Positions 6,124-41,530 of a stretch of DNA of 64,000 bases are shown here, piece after piece. The DNA is from Verrucomicrobiota bacterium (GTDB taxonomy: Bacteria; Verrucomicrobiota; Lentisphaeria; JABSQK01; JAJFLO01), in contig JAJFLQ010000116.1 in assembly GCA_021772615.1 (NCBI GenBank), positions 97,744-161,743 on the forward strand, read 5' to 3'. The position numbers were made by a program, and so were the translations under genes. How positions within the stretch are numbered: the stretch's first letter is position 1; every line of letters begins with the position of its first letter. The notes beneath the pieces were generated by a model that did not search any database, was not told the origin of the DNA, and saw only the letters and a program-made list of their open reading frames with translations.

Positions 6124-6160
6124 GCGGCGTGAAACCCACACTGAAGTGTGAACTCCAACG
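6124..6160 (+). repeat. Hairpin repeat family, B-type copy
   Basis: gcggcgtgaaacccacactgaagtgtgaactccaacg. Confidence 0.8.
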
Positions 6161-9018: not shown

Positions 9019-10203
9019 TCATTCATGATACCGATACTCGGTTATGGTGTCAAATCGATTATTCTCACTGTACTCGCCGGCATCATCTGTGAAAGTCGCG
9101 TCAATCTCCCTGCCGATTTCGACCCGGTACGGCAGCATCGTGTGCGGGTCAACCACAAAGTCTGCGGTGTGGGTGACGTCGAAGGCGACAAGATGAGACT
9201 GTCCGGAATCGGCTGTCAAGGATCGATTGAGTGCAACAATCGCAGCCTCTCGCGATTCCGTGGACGTCGGCTGTGAGCGAAAAGACAGCCGCACGCATGC
9301 ATCGGCGGCGCCGGCGCCGATACACGGCGTATGATCGAGCAATGTATACGTCGCAGTCATGGGTACGGTCAGGTTTCCGAATTCCGGAAAGACGTGATCG
9401 TATTCGGCGGCTACGGGTTCGCCGGGGGTGAGCGTCATCCCGCACCACACGCCGACATCGCGCTGCCAGCGTTCAGCAACCGTTCGCGACATAAGATCCG
9501 CAGAATAGAAATAGTCGGCGACCGCTTCCGCCTCCGCGAGATTTTCGCGTTCGAATTGCGCAAAGGTCGACGTAACTGCCTTCACAGCGTCGCTACGATA
9601 GGTCGGAAAATCGACAAGGCCGGCGTATCGGCCGTCTGCGGTCACGCGGAACGGCGGCGATGCGTTCTCGATTCGCATCATCAGTACCTGCAGCGCCAAA
9701 TGGTAACCCGTGAGCGCATGGTCCTGATCGTAGTCCACGGCTACATCGAGGTCGTTCTGACGGATCAAGAACGTATTTCCTTCCTGCGTGGCGGCAAGGC
9801 GATACCGGCCCGTAACCGTTTTTGCGTTTGTGAGGTCGTTCTGCGACCGGTAACGGCGCTGGCGAAATGAGACATCTGCCGCGATATCCGGCGGCCAGTT
9901 AAACGTCAGCGTGACCCGTCCGTTCTGGTGCCCTGCCGACATACCGGCCGGCGCCACCGTGGATCCGGGCGGCGACAGTCTGGTAGCCGGCACGGGTTGC
10001 GCCAATCGATCCTTCGGTCGCGTACGCTGCGGCAACGCCGTAGCATCGTCGCCAAACAGCGTTTCCGGAAAATACGTCATAACACGCTCGCGGCGATCGT
10101 TATCTGTGGTCCGGCAACCGCCGAGTAGCAGACATGCCGCAGACAGGAATGTGGCCCACGTTCGCGACCATCGGAAAAACCTGATTATGGGTATACTCAA
10201 CAT
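9019..10203 (-). CDS. Hypothetical lipoprotein
   Basis: The start is taken at the internal M (MLSIPIIRFF...ACLLLGGC RTTD), which gives a signal peptide with a lipobox-like LLGGC. I recognise no domain. Confidence 0.55.
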   Translation of the reverse strand: MLSIPIIRFFRWSRTWATFLSAACLLLGGCRTTDNDRRERVMTYFPETLFGDDATALPQRTRPKDRLAQPVPATRLSPPGSTVAPAGMSAGHQNGRVTLTFNWPPDIAADVSFRQRRYRSQNDLTNAKTVTGRYRLAATQEGNTFLIRQNDLDVAVDYDQDHALTGYHLALQVLMMRIENASPPFRVTADGRYAGLVDFPTYRSDAVKAVTSTFAQFERENLAEAEAVADYFYSADLMSRTVAERWQRDVGVWCGMTLTPGEPVAAEYDHVFPEFGNLTVPMTATYTLLDHTPCIGAGAADACVRLSFRSQPTSTESREAAIVALNRSLTADSGQSHLVAFDVTHTADFVVDPHTMLPYRVEIGREIDATFTDDAGEYSENNRFDTITEYRYHE

Positions 10204-10304: not shown

Positions 10305-10312
10305 TTCCGCTT

Positions 10313-10362
10313 GCGAGGCGCTGGAAAAGCCATCCCGCTGAGCGGGATGAACTCCAACGAGG
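10313..10362 (+). repeat. Hairpin repeat family, A-type copy (CATCCCGC-nga-GCGGGATG stem-loop with conserved flanks)
   Basis: The sequence is gcgaggcgctggaaaagccatcccgctgagcgggatgaactccaacgagg. It has near-identical paralogs at 21305 and 35524. Confidence 0.8.
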
Positions 10363-15182: not shown

Positions 15183-16625
15183 TTATTCGGGTTTCGTGGA
15201 GCCGACAGGGGCCGCGGCGTCATCGGACGACGGCAGAAAGGGTCCGCCCAGCGCCAGGTACAGATCCAACCGACGTTGTAACTGACTGTTTCGTAAAGCG
15301 ATAACAGCGCTCTCGGCGGCAAATGTCTGACGCTGCGTTGAGAGCACCGTGTTTACATCCTCGAGCCCCTTCCGGTATCGCTCCAGCGCCAACACTTCGG
15401 CCTGCGTTAGTTCGGTACGGGCGGCGTCAAGCGCCGATCGCTGTTCTTCCAGCGTCGCGCCGGCAACGAGGGCGCGTTCGACTTCACTGAATGCAACGAG
15501 CACCGCGTGGGCGTAGTCGGCGACCGCCGCGTCGTATGCTGCGTGCGATACCGTTCGCCGGGCCGCAAGCGTTCCGCCGCGGAATACGGGTTGCACAAGG
15601 CCACCGGCGATGTTCCACACCAGAAAGTTCCAATTCAACAGGTTCCGCAACGCGTCGCCGCTGGTACCGCCATTGCCGGTCAGCCGAATGTCCGGGAGAT
15701 AATTACGTGATTCGTCTTCCTGCCGTTCGAGAGCTGCCTCGAGCGTCTGGTGCGCAGCAATGAGATCGGGCCGCCGTGATAACAATTCAGACGGAAGGCC
15801 GGCCGGCACAACCGATGTGATCTCCGGCAAGACCGTGTCGGCAGAGATTTCAGCGGCGGGGTAGCGTCCCAGCAACACCTCAAGCGATCGCAGGTTGTCG
15901 TCCATCACGCGCCGGCGGACAATCAGATCGCTCTGCGCATTGGCGACATCGGCCCGTGCAAGATGCACGTCGAGGGCGGAAGAAGTACCGGCGCGCTGGC
16001 CCGTTTCGATGATATCCAGGCTGTTTTTGAAACTTGAGACACGCCGTTCGGCCAGCTCAATTTGAAGCCGCGACTCAACCGCGGTGTACCACAATCTCGC
16101 GACGGCGGCAGCCAACGACAGCTGCGCGGCCTCGAAGCCGGCACGGGTAGACAGGAAATCGGCAACTGCAGCGTTGACGCGGTGTCGACGACGCCCCCAG
16201 ACATCCAGCTCCCAATTGACGGCAACACCGACATTGTAGTTGTTCGTTCGGCTGCCGGTGATCTGAAAACCCGACGAGGACGTACGCTGTGTTCGCGATG
16301 CGTTGGCATTCGCGTCGATCTGCGGCAAACGACTCGCTGTCTGCAGGCGAATCCCCGCGAAGACAGCTTCCATCCGTGCCCTCGCCGCCGCCAGGTTGTG
16401 GTTGTACTGCAACGCTTCCTCAATCAGGCCACGTAGCGTTGCGTCCCTGAAATCGTCAAGCCAGGCATCGGGCCGGTACGGCGCTGCCGAATTCCGCGCG
16501 GCGGTCCACGATTCCGGCGGCATAGCCGCTACACGGGGACGGCCGGTACGATCGAGCGCACCCACGCACCCGGAAAATGCAGCAAGGCTTACGACAAGGA
16601 ATGCAAAGGATACGAACCTGCTCAC
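15183..16625 (-). CDS. Efflux outer-membrane factor (TolC/NodT family lipoprotein)
   Basis: A 480-aa product with a lipoprotein signal (LAAFSGCVG) and two tandem OEP repeats. It sits immediately upstream of the MFP/RND genes. Confidence 0.85.
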   Translation of the reverse strand: MSRFVSFAFLVVSLAAFSGCVGALDRTGRPRVAAMPPESWTAARNSAAPYRPDAWLDDFRDATLRGLIEEALQYNHNLAAARARMEAVFAGIRLQTASRLPQIDANANASRTQRTSSSGFQITGSRTNNYNVGVAVNWELDVWGRRRHRVNAAVADFLSTRAGFEAAQLSLAAAVARLWYTAVESRLQIELAERRVSSFKNSLDIIETGQRAGTSSALDVHLARADVANAQSDLIVRRRVMDDNLRSLEVLLGRYPAAEISADTVLPEITSVVPAGLPSELLSRRPDLIAAHQTLEAALERQEDESRNYLPDIRLTGNGGTSGDALRNLLNWNFLVWNIAGGLVQPVFRGGTLAARRTVSHAAYDAAVADYAHAVLVAFSEVERALVAGATLEEQRSALDAARTELTQAEVLALERYRKGLEDVNTVLSTQRQTFAAESAVIALRNSQLQRRLDLYLALGGPFLPSSDDAAAPVGSTKPE

Positions 16626-21194: not shown

Positions 21195-21304
21195 ATACCC
21201 CGCATCGGGTGGCGCAAGCACGCTAAAGCGCGAACTTACAACAGCCTGCAGAATTTGTGTGATTGTTCACAGTCACCGCATGCAGGACTGAGTTCGCTGC
21301 CTTT

Positions 21305-21356
21305 GCGAGACGCTGGGAAAGCCATGCCGCAGAGCGGGATGAACGCCAGCGAGTGG
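21305..21356 (+). repeat. Hairpin repeat family, A-type copy
   Basis: gcgagacgctgggaaagccatgccgcagagcgggatgaacgccagcgagtgg. Confidence 0.75.
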
Positions 21357-23479: not shown

Positions 23480-23658
23480 TTTTACGGGTGCCCGGGGTGC
23501 CCGTCTGCTACTCGATCGAGACGCTCAGCTTGTACACCAATGTCGACTTACTGTGGAAGACGGGCCCGGATGCGGTCGAACCGCGACGAGCGCATTCAGC
23601 AGCAGTTGGCGTTCGCACCATCGGAGCCGCGTGTTGTGCCATAGCCGCCATGATCGGA

Positions 23659-23693
23659 GCGTGAAACCCACACTGAAGTGTGAACTCCAGCAG
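23659..23693 (+). repeat. Hairpin repeat family, B-type copy (CACAC-TGAA-GTGTG)
   Basis: gcgtgaaacccacactgaagtgtgaactccagcag. Confidence 0.8.
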
Positions 23694-27320: not shown

Positions 27321-27509
27321 TCTGCGGACGACGCCGGCCTGTCGTCAACTCCGTCATTATGGTCAACTGGATCAACCAGCGTACTGAGACACCTATGCAT
27401 ACGCCGGCCTGCCGTCAATACCGTCATTATGGTCAACGTGGTCAACGTGGACAACCTTGTCAATTCATTAGTCATTCTCTTTCATCATGCCGAGATTAGA
27501 GCCAACGCG

Positions 27510-29351
27510 ATGATGAGGTTGCATGTAAGAAATCACCGACGAGGCAGGCTAAGGCCTGTACGCCAAAATCACCCGCGATCACGAGGTTGGCGGGACCGGC
27601 ATGGACGGTCCCCCAAGCACGCCGCTGTCGGCGGCACCGGTAGTTCCGGCAGTGCGACGCCAACGCGGACGTTTCGGCGCCCGGCAACAGCGCGTGCGAT
27701 TTTTTTCCTGGGCGTGCTGCTCGTGTCGAGCGGGTTCGCGGCCACAGACTACGCGTCGGTCGCGGACCGGCGGGTTGAAGCGGCATCGCTCACCGAAGAG
27801 GAAAAGGCGGCGTGGTTCGAACAGCACGTCCTGGCGGAGTTCTCATCGCCTGACTGTCGCCTGGTCGCCAAACTGCGAACCGACGGGCCCGACATTCGCG
27901 ATATCCAGACGACCGCTCATTTCCTCGCCGCCATAAGTATGAAATACGGCGTATTGCCGACCCCGGAGACCGCTCAGCTCGCGCTTGAGATTATTGAGGA
28001 TATCATCGCGGCAGATGCGCTTGACGGTCTCGACGGTCGGCTGTCGGCATACTGCGACATCACGGATGGGTTGCCAAAACCGGGCGGGACACTGACGGCA
28101 AACGGGCATACACAGCTCTTCTTCGGCTACGTCACGGCCTGGCGTATGATCCATGACCCCCGAATCCGCGAAACAATTCAGAGTCATGTAACATTGATCG
28201 CACAACGATACATCGACGACGGCTTTATCCTGAAGGCCCCGTCCGGACACGCGTTGCCGTACAGCGACGTAAGGGCAACGCGGTGGCAGGCGTCACGCAG
28301 CCGCCGTCTCGATTCGCTGGTGTTCCAGGAGACGGCACTGCTATTCGTTGATGACGAGACGATTCGCGAGCACATACTCCAGCTACAGAAAAAAGCGGTG
28401 CGTGCCGGCTATCTCGGTTCGATAAAGCGGCTTCATGTCAGCTTTCTCAATGTCAAGCTTCCGTCACATGCAACCGACTGGTTGAATGTTCTTAGGTTAT
28501 TCACACTGGCGCAGGCTTCCGGCAGCCCGGAGTATCGCATTGCGCTGTCGAAGCTGTACCGGACGCAACGCAAGGAGATGAACCCGCTTTTCAACAGTAT
28601 GTCGGCGATCATTTCGGGTTCAGCGTCCGCCGCTACCAATATCCTGCTCGATACCTTTCCGCTTACACTCAACAATCGGCCGGTCTACAATCGCGACGTG
28701 CCCCGCCGCATCGTACCCAGGCTGGTGAAGTCCGAATGGTTTGTCGAGGCAAGAGATCCATTGCCGATCTACCGCCGTCAATTGCGTGCGCACAATTGGA
28801 AGGCGAATCCGTACGCGATCACCGCCGAACCGGTCTCGGAGAGCACGTTTCGCTACTCCGGCGTGGACTACCTCCTCGCCTACTGGATGCATCGCTACGC
28901 GCAAATCGAGCGCATACAGGAGCAACAACCTGCAGCGCTTGTCGTCGACGACAGAAAACTCGAACGCGACGCCATCACGCGGTCACTCGAAACTCAAGGC
29001 TACACGGTGGTACAGACAGCGACCGTGGAAGAGGCAAAAGCGATATTGCTGAAGAGGCCGATAACGCAGCTCGTGACCGATCTCGACCTGAGTCGGAACG
29101 GTACGGGACTGCGCGGAAGGAAGGCGGGATTAGAGTTGCTGCAATGGGTTCGTGAGGGTCTGGATAACGGCGACGCCAGGTTGGCAACGCTCCGGGAAGT
29201 GACCCTGCATTCGACGTTGTTCAATAGCGACGACCCGTGGGGACGGCTGCTTCCGCGCAGCCGTCGGCGCATTTGCCGGACAGCCGAGGACATGGGCTTC
29301 ACCGTTCAACCCAAGACAGTGTTGACACGAGTGACGCCGGGAGCCGAATAA
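27510..29351 (+). CDS. Hypothetical protein with a C-terminal receiver-like (REC) domain; the start is ambiguous
   Basis: The C-terminal 120 aa (ALVVDDRKLERDAI...QLVTDLDLSRNG...) resemble a CheY-like receiver. The N-terminus is Arg-rich, then a hydrophobic stretch (AIFFLGVLLVSSGFAA) that may be a signal or TM segment. I list the first in-frame ATG after the repeat element. Confidence 0.5.
   Translation: MMRLHVRNHRRGRLRPVRQNHPRSRGWRDRHGRSPKHAAVGGTGSSGSATPTRTFRRPATARAIFFLGVLLVSSGFAATDYASVADRRVEAASLTEEEKAAWFEQHVLAEFSSPDCRLVAKLRTDGPDIRDIQTTAHFLAAISMKYGVLPTPETAQLALEIIEDIIAADALDGLDGRLSAYCDITDGLPKPGGTLTANGHTQLFFGYVTAWRMIHDPRIRETIQSHVTLIAQRYIDDGFILKAPSGHALPYSDVRATRWQASRSRRLDSLVFQETALLFVDDETIREHILQLQKKAVRAGYLGSIKRLHVSFLNVKLPSHATDWLNVLRLFTLAQASGSPEYRIALSKLYRTQRKEMNPLFNSMSAIISGSASAATNILLDTFPLTLNNRPVYNRDVPRRIVPRLVKSEWFVEARDPLPIYRRQLRAHNWKANPYAITAEPVSESTFRYSGVDYLLAYWMHRYAQIERIQEQQPAALVVDDRKLERDAITRSLETQGYTVVQTATVEEAKAILLKRPITQLVTDLDLSRNGTGLRGRKAGLELLQWVREGLDNGDARLATLREVTLHSTLFNSDDPWGRLLPRSRRRICRTAEDMGFTVQPKTVLTRVTPGAE
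27543..27574 (+). repeat. Partial copy of the repeat tail (CAGGC-TAAG-GCCTG hairpin plus CCAAAATCACC)
   Basis: gaggcaggctaaggcctgtacgccaaaatcacc matches the right end of the 29412-29633 element (aatcaggctaaagcctgcactccaaaatacc). Confidence 0.55.
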
Positions 29352-29411
29352 CGACACTGTGCGGTCTGCTGTTGTCGCTTGCGACAAACGGACATTGCTT
29401 GCCGGTGTTGG

Positions 29412-29633
29412 GGAGTGCAGGCTTCAGCCTGACAGCGTATATGCGATGGCATTCGCACTTTAGTGAAACGTAGACACCCGATGCCTTTGGCCCCGGATGC
29501 TTTGGTGTGCCGCGGCGTTGCGAGCAAGGCGCGAAACCCACACTAAAGTGTGAACTCCAACTAATAGGACGCAAATCACACAGCTTTATTCTAATCGCAG
29601 AACCGCGGAAAATCAGGCTAAAGCCTGCACTCC
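29412..29633 (+). mobile_element. MITE-like composite repeat: 21-bp terminal inverted repeats flanking a B-type hairpin core
   Basis: The left end is GGAGTGCAGGCTTCAGCCTGA (29412-29432) and the right end is TCAGGCTAAAGCCTGCACTCC (29613-29633), its reverse complement with one mismatch. The internal core cgcgaaacccacactaaagtgtgaactccaac lies at 29530-29562. There is no ORF inside. Confidence 0.55.
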
Positions 29634-29671
29634 AAAATACCGGCAATCAAAGATCGTTGATCACAACACTG

Positions 29672-30766
29672 CTACCACGACCCGGACGCACCGCCGCCGC
29701 CGGACGAGCCACCGCCGCCAGAGAACCCGCCACCGCCGGATGATGATGAAAATCCGCCCCCAGATGAGAAACCACCACCGCTGGAACGGCTGGCACGCAC
29801 CAGCATGTCAATTGTATAGCGCTCCTCCTTCGTAAAGCCGCAAACTACACATTTGTATTCGCGGAAGCCGTAACCGCTTCTGGAATACGTCGGCGCCTTT
29901 TTAATGTACGTGCGCGTTTTGCGATAGGAGAGGTGGTCACATTTCATGCACTTCTTAAATTTCCAACTCCAGTAATTGCGATACGCAATTACCTTGATAT
30001 CCCCTGCTTCATCGGATACCCAGACATCATAATCGACGGATCCGATTTGTTCTTCTTTCTGTTGCCCTTTGTTGAGGTGTTTATCTTCGTGTTCCTCGGG
30101 CAATTTGTACATTGTCAGCCCACTCTTCTTGCTGACGCGCGGCCGGTTCCGCCGATAGCGCCGGAACAGACTGATCCAGATGATGATTGAAATCACCAGG
30201 AGGATCCACCAGAGGATCGTGTAGTCGCGATCGAGCATGCGACGTAGCGAACTCCCGCGTACTGCTATGTCGACAGATCCGCCTTTCAACACGTCAATGA
30301 CGGCTTTTGCTCCTTCATGCACACCCTTCCCGTACTCGCTCTTGCGAAAGTATGGGATCATAATCTCACGGATGATCCGACTGGCCGCGGCGTCGGTCAG
30401 AATACCTTCCAGTCCATAGCCGACTTCGATTCGGACTTTTCGATCCTGCAATGCCAATAACAACAACACCCCGTTGTCGAGGCCCTTCTGTCCAAGCCCC
30501 CAAGTGTTGAAAACCTCGTTGGCATAGCGCTCGAGGCGTTCGCCCTCCAGGCTCGGGACGGTCAGCACCACCACCTGGTTTCCCGTGGCGTTTTCGTGTA
30601 CCGCCAACTGCGTTTCGATCGTTTTCGCAAGATCGTCAGAAAATACCCCACCGTAGTCGTTGACCCGCGCGTAGAGGTGCGGGACGTCTTTCGCCGCCGC
30701 CGACATTGCGATCACAATACCGACTACCAACCATACGACACATGTTCCTGTCATACCCGATTTCAT
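29672..30766 (-). CDS. TPM (DUF477, YgcG-like) domain protein with a TM anchor, Cys-rich segment and Gly/Ser-rich C-terminal tail
   Basis: The N-terminal signal is followed by the TPM_phosphatase pattern (YARVNDYGGVFS...QVVVLTVPSLEG...LLLLALQDRKVRIEVGYGLEG). The C-terminal tail is SSGGGFSSGGGFSSSSGGGGFSGGGG. Confidence 0.7.
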   Translation of the reverse strand: MKSGMTGTCVVWLVVGIVIAMSAAAKDVPHLYARVNDYGGVFSDDLAKTIETQLAVHENATGNQVVVLTVPSLEGERLERYANEVFNTWGLGQKGLDNGVLLLLALQDRKVRIEVGYGLEGILTDAAASRIIREIMIPYFRKSEYGKGVHEGAKAVIDVLKGGSVDIAVRGSSLRRMLDRDYTILWWILLVISIIIWISLFRRYRRNRPRVSKKSGLTMYKLPEEHEDKHLNKGQQKEEQIGSVDYDVWVSDEAGDIKVIAYRNYWSWKFKKCMKCDHLSYRKTRTYIKKAPTYSRSGYGFREYKCVVCGFTKEERYTIDMLVRASRSSGGGFSSGGGFSSSSGGGGFSGGGGSSGGGGASGSW

Positions 30767-35355: not shown

Positions 35356-35523
35356 TGTCACGAACAAGCCCGGGGCCTCTGGCACAATGTCACCAAGCTA
35401 AGGAAACATGCAATAAGACCGCCGAATATCGAACAAGAAATTCTGAATTTCGAAGGGTAAAACTTCAGCATTCAACATTTCTTGTTCTGGGTTCCACATC
35501 CTTGATTTAGTGACATTAGGCCT

Positions 35524-35576
35524 CAGGCGCTGGAAAGCCATCCCGCGGAACGGGATGAACGCCAACGAAAGGCGTC
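35524..35576 (+). repeat. Hairpin repeat family, A-type copy located between pspA and the AAA ATPase gene
   Basis: caggcgctggaaagccatcccgcggaacgggatgaacgccaacgaaaggcgtc has a perfect 8-bp stem (CATCCCGC/GCGGGATG). Confidence 0.8.
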
Positions 35577-41314: not shown

Positions 41315-41362
41315 GACGCCCTTCGTTGGCGTTCACAGCTTCAGATGTGGGTTTTCAGCGCC
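41315..41362 (-). repeat. Hairpin repeat family, B-type copy in inverted orientation
   Basis: gacgcccttcgttggcgttcacagcttcagatgtgggttttcagcgcc; its reverse complement gives ...gaaaacccacatctgaagctgtgaacgccaacgaaggg. Confidence 0.75.
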
Positions 41363-41427
41363 GTACCAGAGCGTACCGAACACATCCAAAGCTGTGAACG
41401 CCACACGTAAAAACACATCGGCGGTCT

Positions 41428-41451
41428 GTTGGAGTTCGCGCTTCAGCGTGC
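41428..41451 (-). repeat. Hairpin repeat family copy with a GCGC-TGAA-GCGC stem (compensatory variant), in inverted orientation
   Basis: The reverse complement of gttggagttcgcgcttcagcgtgc is gcacgctgaagcgcgaactccaac. It has the conserved TGAA loop and GAACTCCAAC tail with a different stem. Confidence 0.6.
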
Positions 41452-41493
41452 TTGCGCCTCCCCGTACGAATCGCTACGCGTGTTGTGACGTTG

Positions 41494-41530
41494 CGTGAAA
41501 CCCACACGAAAGTGTGAACAGCTCCAAGGA
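41494..41530 (+). repeat. Hairpin repeat family, B-type copy (CACAC-GAAA-GTGTG)
   Basis: gcgtgaaacccacacgaaagtgtgaacagctccaagg. Confidence 0.75.

Follow-up and report, generated by a model that had tools for sequence, protein, structure and literature searches.

The imperfect palindrome at positions 29379-29666 of the window (the whole 64-kb stretch of DNA that was analysed) is best read, with a probability of roughly 0.8, as a REP cluster of two nested head-to-head inverted doublets, REPIN- or BIME-like in form, that was spread by a RAYT. An earlier note had taken the same place for a MITE-like element with 21-bp terminal inverted repeats. These "terminal repeats" were found to be units of a dispersed hairpin family, and the feature is therefore interpreted as a pair of inverted REP doublets, one nested in the other. 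On the outside would be two A-type REPs, 5'-TGCCGGTATTTT-GGAG-TG-CAGGC-TTYA-GCCTG-3', with 180 nt between the arms, and on the inside an intact B-type REP and a decayed partner, in which case the B core is a second doublet and not cargo. For the spacer of 180 nt, which is unusually long, the best explanation is that a doublet came to be enclosed by a second one, or that an arm of 34-75 nt was copied in inverted orientation. The coordinates of the features are given in Table 1.

The 21-mer GGAGTGCAGGCTTCAGCCTGA was found at 29412-29432 on the + strand and its reverse complement at 29613-29633 on the - strand, with 20 of 21 positions matching. No third site was present in the window at up to 3 mismatches, and no match was obtained in 100 dinucleotide shuffles. 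The inverted repeat reported in the earlier note was thus borne out, and the note was also right about the CAGGC-NNNN-GCCTG hairpin inside each arm, the B-type core (29528-29561), the sub-motif CGCACTTTAGTG (29454-29465) and the partial copy of the right end at 27543-27574, which is approximately 24/32 identical. Outside the 21-mers the arms stay homologous for another 13-33 nt, and the 21-bp repeats are therefore not the termini of an element, as had been supposed: 29399-29432 and 29613-29646 are well matched at 29 of 34 positions, and a weaker similarity, 54 nt at 80% complementarity, covers 29379-29432 and 29613-29666. The consensus of the 34-nt arm, drawn up by eye, is TTGCCGGT(g/a)TT(gg/tt)GGAGTGCAGGCTT(c/t)AGCCTGA. 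When gaps were allowed, arm similarity also ran inward, to approximately 29452 and 29593 (ATCGCA..CGC.G). Between the arms, CGCACTTTAGTG aligned in inverted orientation with the B core CACTAAAGTGTG, with a local score equalled by 2 of 500 shuffles; the local alignment of the decayed B unit with the B core is CACTAAAGTGCGAA / CACTAAAGTGTGAA, and the two were predicted to pair in both the ssDNA fold and the RNA fold. As single-stranded DNA, 29379-29666 was predicted to fold into one long hairpin (-65.5 kcal/mol, z = -6.5 against shuffles), which is the behaviour of two inverted REPs and a spacer in a REPIN, and the RNA fold of the intergenic gap (29352-29671, 320 nt, which includes the palindrome) gave the same hairpin with z = -5.8.

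Table 1. Features of the palindrome, of the REP family and of the neighbouring genes, in positions of the window; the sequence given is that of the strand named in the cell.
Feature	Position	Strand	Description
Imperfect palindrome, full extent (nested doublets)	29379..29666	.	54-nt arms, gapped alignment, predicted to fold
Left A-type REP arm	29399..29432	+ (tag strand)	TTGCCGGTGTTGG-GGAG-TG-CAGGC-TTCA-GCCTG-A
Left arm, GGAG tag	29412-29415		
Left arm, hairpin	29418-29431		
Decayed B-type unit	29446..29470	+	Same orientation as left arm; includes CGCACTTTAGTG (29454-29465)
B-type REP unit, core GGCGCGAAACCCACACTAAAGTGTGAACTCCAAC	29528..29561	- (tag strand)	+ strand: GGCGCGAAACC-CACAC-TAAA-GTGTG-AACTCCAAC
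Right A-type REP arm	29608..29646	- (tag strand)	+ strand: GAAAAT-CAGGC-TAAA-GCCTG-CACTCC-AAAATACCGGCAA
Solo A-type unit	27543..27574	-	+ strand: CAGGC-TAAG-GCCTG-TACGCC-AAAATCACC; ~24/32 identical to right end
Solo B-type unit	6126..6159	-	
Solo B-type unit	23658..23691	-	
Solo C-type unit	10311..10361	-	Stem CATCCCG/CGGGATG, tail GAACTCCAAC
Solo C-type unit	21303..21353	-	
Solo C-type unit	35519..35569	-	
Two tandem 46-nt units (family D5)	27331..27446	-	Hairpin plus AACTCC or AATACC in each unit
Inverted REP doublet, like stems CACATC/GCTGTG	41320..41405	.	23-nt arms, 91% complementary, 31-nt spacer
Inverted REP doublet, unlike stems	41429..41525	.	GTTGGAGTT-CGCGC-TTCA-GCGTG ... CACAC-GAAA-GTGTG-AAC
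Upstream convergent gene	27429..29351	+	640-aa ORF, weak response-regulator receiver match, start codon uncertain
Downstream convergent gene	29672..30766	-	TPM-domain protein, last in LemA-TPM-TPM operon

Pattern scans, checked against reversed-sequence controls, detected approximately 16 units of the family in the 64-kb window, 3 of them A-type; REPs are typically present in more than 100 copies per genome. At least 15 of the units are intergenic, as REPs are, and the one doubtful case is the unit at 27545, which overlaps the upstream ORF of uncertain start, inside its first 50 codons. Near this unit the translation of the ORF is Arg-rich and non-coding-looking and is followed by a signal-peptide-like stretch; the unit may be an intragenic REP, or the start codon may be mis-set. 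The motif of a unit on one strand is TGCCGRTATTTTGGAGTN-hairpin. Read on the tag strand, a unit consists of GGAG (or GGCG), 2-3 nt, a 5-7-bp stem and a T(G/A)AA-type loop, and on the opposite strand all units follow GCG(Y)GGAAA-NN-[stem-loop-stem]-(N)AC(T/G)CCAA(C). Stem sequence varies with the type, pairing is always kept, and the flanks are conserved. The A-type unit has a 5-bp perfect stem, a 4-nt loop and a 6-nt tag region, or approximately 34 nt with its conserved extension, and the units are thus short stem-loop palindromes of the 20-40 bp size of REPs. Their tag is neither GTAG nor CGTC; it is GGAG in the A, B and C types and GGCG in some C and D copies.

The A-type units of the window are those at 27545, 29431 (opposite strand) and 29614. 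B-type units were found at 6137, 23669, 29539 and 41503, with a decayed copy near 29460, and this type (family D1) is represented in the window by four copies at 79-100%. C-type units, with a 7-bp stem, were found at 10331, 21323 and 35539; stems of 5 bp and 7 bp could not be aligned in one structural register with MAFFT. The tandem 46-nt units at 27330 and 27400 are 87% identical, with a 70-bp period, carry a GACGCC/GTCGTC-type hairpin and have GTCATTATGGTCAAC after the AACTCC or AATACC. Only one A/A doublet is present in the window, and the other doublets have spacers of 31 and approximately 50 nt; those at 41320-41525 occupy part of a 530-bp gap before a 1751-aa gene. On the tag strand, the conserved flank 3' of the hairpin is (N)NTTT(T)CC-(N)CGC. 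The T-run that thus follows the stem weakly resembles a terminator, and it may be part of the recognition site of the enzyme or a product of selection on transcripts.

The eight solo units (6137, 10331, 21323, 23669, 27330, 27400, 27545 and 35539) all carry hairpin-ACTCC on the + strand and the GGAG tag on the - strand. This bias is independent of the direction of the neighbouring gene (two-sided binomial p of approximately 0.008, n = 8). The GC skew and AT skew of the window are -0.024 and +0.076, respectively. If + is the lagging strand, as the base skews suggest, the tagged strand would be the lagging-strand template, which would suit single-strand transposition by a Y1 enzyme. Short-read (Logan) contigs were also found to end in or next to REP units. 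The Logan contig of the window locus (L001, 7000-7034) stops inside the B-type hairpin, and another contig (L207) ends at 9127, approximately 160 nt past a PBP gene and just before the doublet of the related genome L206. Such ends suggest that the repeats break assemblies, a hint of multiplicity.

Two relative MAGs of the same sample series, with NrdR identities of 68% and 64%, were available for comparison. The one with 64% NrdR identity (L206, GCA_021772675.1, GC 37%) contains at 16199-16290 a 92-bp inverted doublet with 38-nt arms at 92% complementarity, which reads TGCCGATATTTTGGAGTT-CAAGC-TTGA-GCTTG, 16 nt and then the inverted arm. Its arms have TGCCGRTATTTTGGAGT in common with those of the window, and the alignment of the two, CA(G/A)GC-loop-GC(C/T)TG-NACTCCAAAAT-A(C/T)CGGCA, shows a compensatory change at stem pair 3, from G:C in the window to A:T in the relative. 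The aligned region includes a stretch outside the 21-mer, indicating that the true arm is approximately 34-38 nt long. Judged from these sequences, this doublet is ordinarily a short hairpin that resembles a REPIN.

When one genome per species was scanned for GGAGTGCAGGCTNNAGCCTG, at least 120 loci were obtained, covering 0.93 Mb. Among the matches listed, most were from Chloroflexota, in which several genomes each contributed many loci, and further ones were from Acidobacteriota, Verrucomicrobiota, Lentisphaerota and other phyla. The chance expectation for a 20-mer is approximately 17 matches in 596 Gb at uniform composition, and some matches in unrelated phyla may be due to chance. In the 0.93 Mb around the matches, 192 units of a hairpin plus CACTCC were counted, compared to 7 in reversed-sequence controls. 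Other stems also occurred there (CGGCC, CAGCC, CGGGC and CGGAC), and the orientation of the loop was fixed relative to the tag (T[G/A]AA in 167 units, TTYA in 5). The B-type core gave no match in the metagenome scan. REPs are usually lineage-specific, and an identical unit across phyla is unusual. The identical 20-nt REP CAGGCT[G/A]AAGCCTGCACTCC (L002-L121) is multi-copy in several Chloroflexota and in one Acidobacteriaceae MAG, and was also seen in MAGs of Victivallales, Verrucomicrobiales, Pyrinomonadaceae, Nitrospirales and Hydrogenedentota, where contamination or chance is possible.

A six-frame motif screen of these loci yielded one HUH/Y1 ORF, at 1827-2363 of a locus from a Chloroflexota MAG (L024). 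This ORF matched Pfam Y1_Tnp (E = 7e-11) and scored 105.5 bits (cutoff 80) against the NCBIfam equivalog for the REP-associated tyrosine transposase (NF047646), and the sole sequence match in the PDB was E. coli TnpA-REP, 4ER8 (E = 3.6e-11). The A-type 20-mer, GGAGTGCAGGCTTCAGCCTG, flanks the gene, with one copy 4 nt upstream of the ATG and another 45 nt downstream of the stop codon, and a cluster of REP pairs follows downstream. Relatives of this RAYT from metagenomes were collected at 80 loci (31-75% identity), three more of them above the NCBIfam cutoff, and the catalytic motif of the RAYTs linked to such hairpins is of the HYH type (NHYH...YIHNNP). The flanks of the relatives are rich in GGAGT(N)-hairpins with many different stems, and a perfect hairpin preceded by GGAG was present within 200 nt at 28 of 63 distinct loci. 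Among the tetranucleotides 2 nt 5' of the stems at these 63 loci, GGAG was the commonest (49 cases), followed by the register-shifted NGGA, GGAA and GGAT; GTAG was not among the first 15. No RAYT gene was found in the 64-kb window.

Several other arrangements were observed at the loci of these genomes. At L024 2364-2720, the last approximately 60 bp of the RAYT gene and a REP pair are repeated in tandem downstream of the gene, and RAYT-tail fragments (the last 14-20 residues) joined to a REP recur at L084 4218-4277, L105 5088-5147 and L069 51-92, one of them labelled Ktedonobacter. In Thermoflexales H21_290 (L002, L011, L021, L036, L037, L047, L050, L057, L064, L098, L106 and others), at least 15 near-identical dimers with unlike stems were found, GGAGTGCGGCCTTCAGGCCG-CGTTTTATG-CAGGCTGAAGCCTGCACTCC-AACCTYAAGTTGACACGCATG, with a conserved tail beyond which the copies diverge. 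A Chloroflexia MAG carries at L059 5294-5688 at least 5 matches to the A-type 20-mer, mostly with a 75-bp period; a CRISPR reading of this array was rejected in favour of a plain tandem repeat, since the repetition covers the full 75-bp unit together with its flanks.

By analogy with the family, a RAYT would have spread the units. RAYTs are Y1/HUH enzymes, which bind the hairpin when it is folded in single-stranded DNA, and the presumed form of the substrate is single-stranded GGAGTG-CAGGCTTCAGCCTG. Enzymes of the Y1/HUH class act on single-stranded hairpins and leave no target-site duplication, which agrees with the finding that none was detected at either pair of ends. The tetranucleotide 5' of the stem may serve as a guide for cleavage, as in the group 3 enzymes that have been tested, and GGAG keeps the A3G4 positions, which would select the CT cleavage site. 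For a group 3 enzyme in vitro, the tag was reported to behave like a guide in which positions 3 and 4 matter most and determine that cleavage falls at CT (PMC8266576).

The palindrome fills nearly all of the 320-bp gap between two convergent genes. For the TPM-domain protein the only record was a 7-kb Logan contig; its best homologues are 42-45% identical, and synteny is lost around them. The 3' end of its gene (29682-29745) is composed of short direct repeats of imperfect sequence (CACCGCCGCC...), which code for a C-terminal tail rich in Gly and Ser. Folding predictions suggest that the long hairpin probably forms at the shared 3' ends of both convergent transcripts, and by analogy a role in 3'-end protection or termination for both of them is plausible. 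A function of REPs in the 3'-UTR has been reported (PMC3733652; bioRxiv 10.64898/2026.03.23.713779).

These points favour an alternative in which the palindrome is a local inverted duplication without a mobile history, maintained because it terminates transcription in both directions or stabilises the 3'-UTRs: it lies between convergent stop codons, and its predicted RNA fold is very stable (the z of -5.8 given above). This alternative is considered unlikely. The building blocks occur at more than 10 other intergenic sites of the window, next to genes in tandem, divergent and convergent contexts, and are also found in another genome and beside RAYT genes. Moreover, no canonical or U-tract (T-run) terminator was detected at the palindrome region, and a reading as an intrinsic terminator was rejected on this ground. 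A reading of the unit as attC was also rejected, as there is no complementarity between its outer flanks. A local role would fit with a REP origin and would be added to it rather than replace it.

Still less can be said for a classical MITE, that is, a deletion derivative of a DDE-type IS whose 21-bp terminal inverted repeats are recognised as duplex DNA and which makes a target-site duplication on insertion. Like Correia/NEMIS and Nezha, the feature is small, non-coding and intergenic, has inverted ends (20/21, around approximately 180 bp of non-coding DNA) and is of typical size. However, the homology of the arms passes beyond the supposed termini, and each inverted end is a hairpin repeat in its own right. 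No target-site duplication was detected at the claimed ends or at the extended ends, where short matches in the search grid stood at chance level (of 300 random positions, 151 gave a 4-bp match). Neither the 222- or 288-bp unit nor its spacer had a second copy in the window or among 207 other loci (1.37 Mb), no transposase was found among the 25 window ORFs examined, and no matching DDE-type IS was found. The earlier note had looked to the transposase of an IS with matching ends; the same repeat elsewhere is a single hairpin, and the enzyme linked to it is a Y1/HUH RAYT whose gene is flanked by such hairpins, not an IS with inverted ends. A classical MITE is thus regarded as very improbable. 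The idea that the feature is a mobilised, non-autonomous form of the dispersed hairpins holds in spirit, in that a REPIN is a doublet built from them, and fails only for a MITE of the classical kind with terminal inverted repeats and a target-site duplication.

Least credible of all is a structured small RNA gene or cis-regulatory RNA, for which the strong predicted structure and the one compensatory change between genomes could be cited, but which found no Rfam match in the whole window at gathering thresholds and only two chance-level matches (E >= 1) in 29300-29720 at permissive E-values, no promoter-like site at the palindrome region and no match of the non-REP spacer in the window or in the 207 other loci. 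No tRNA or tmRNA was found.

The REP cluster shares many traits with known systems. An inverted doublet, or REPIN, has been proposed to be the mobilised non-autonomous unit of the RAYT, with single hairpins as remnants (PMC3116915). Like the REPINs of Bertels and Rainey 2011 (PMC3116915), the feature contains two inverted REPs and a spacer that are predicted to form a hairpin as ssDNA or RNA, and the solo copy (approximately 24/32) has kept less of the sequence than the arms of the doublet (20/21). In contrast to REPINs, the spacer is 180 nt rather than approximately 40-80 nt long and holds a second, different doublet; the usual spacer of a doublet is 20-100 bp (PMC3733652), or 71/110 bp (PMC3116915). 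The 92-bp doublet of the related genome has a more typical REPIN form than that of the window. As in enterobacterial BIMEs, REPs are clustered in alternating orientation within one intergenic region, where the genes are often convergent or co-directional, whereas the regular alternation of Y- and Z-type REPs with defined linker motifs was not seen here. RAYT "REPtrons", with many units per genome, likewise have extragenic units, which occur as singles, inverted dimers and clusters and flank the RAYT gene (here, in other genomes); in contrast to the REPtrons described, the host here is an uncultured bacterium without close database relatives.

At the level of the unit, the closest likeness is to the group 3 REP of Marinomonas sp. 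MWYL1 (PMC8266576), which, as does the A-type unit, has a TTTA/TTCA loop and a perfect stem of 5 bp, separated from the tag by 2 nt. Group 3 REPs and the GTAG-1 and GTAG-2 families (PMC3733652) have in common with the present units a conserved tetranucleotide, a dinucleotide and a short motif on the other side of the stem. The tag superfamilies of REPs are GTAG (with the variants GYAG, GYRG, GTRG, GTMG and GTGG) and CGTC (PMC3733652); unlike in the GTAG families, the tag found here is GGAG (also GGCG/GGAA). The string GGAG was not found in the text of the REP and RAYT papers searched for it, and a literature search with motif strings and accession numbers returned nothing relevant. The HYH motif of the RAYTs linked to these hairpins is as in RAYT subclass 2.8 (PMC6006769), a resemblance at the level of the motif only.

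On these findings, what looked like a miniature transposon and the "dispersed hairpin repeats" of the earlier note probably are one REP family, which would clear up the question of annotation, and the intergenic palindrome then needs no special explanation. The feature is an ordinary one for a genome, with the exception of the 5' tag, GGAG instead of GTAG. Tentatively, and with more doubt than confidence, the GGAG hairpins may be viewed as a third REP tag superfamily, tied to a clade of RAYTs with the HYH motif and present across Chloroflexota, Acidobacteriota, Verrucomicrobiota, Lentisphaerota and the source lineage. GGAG alters position 2 of the guide-like tag and keeps the two positions that would select the cleavage site, and these elements and their RAYTs may thus lend themselves well to testing the guide model. 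The occurrence of one 20-mer in distant phyla is relevant to the question of whether the inheritance of RAYT and REP is always vertical; if such a superfamily is real, the identical 20-nt REP in several phyla would point to horizontal movement of RAYT-REP systems and not to strictly vertical co-evolution.
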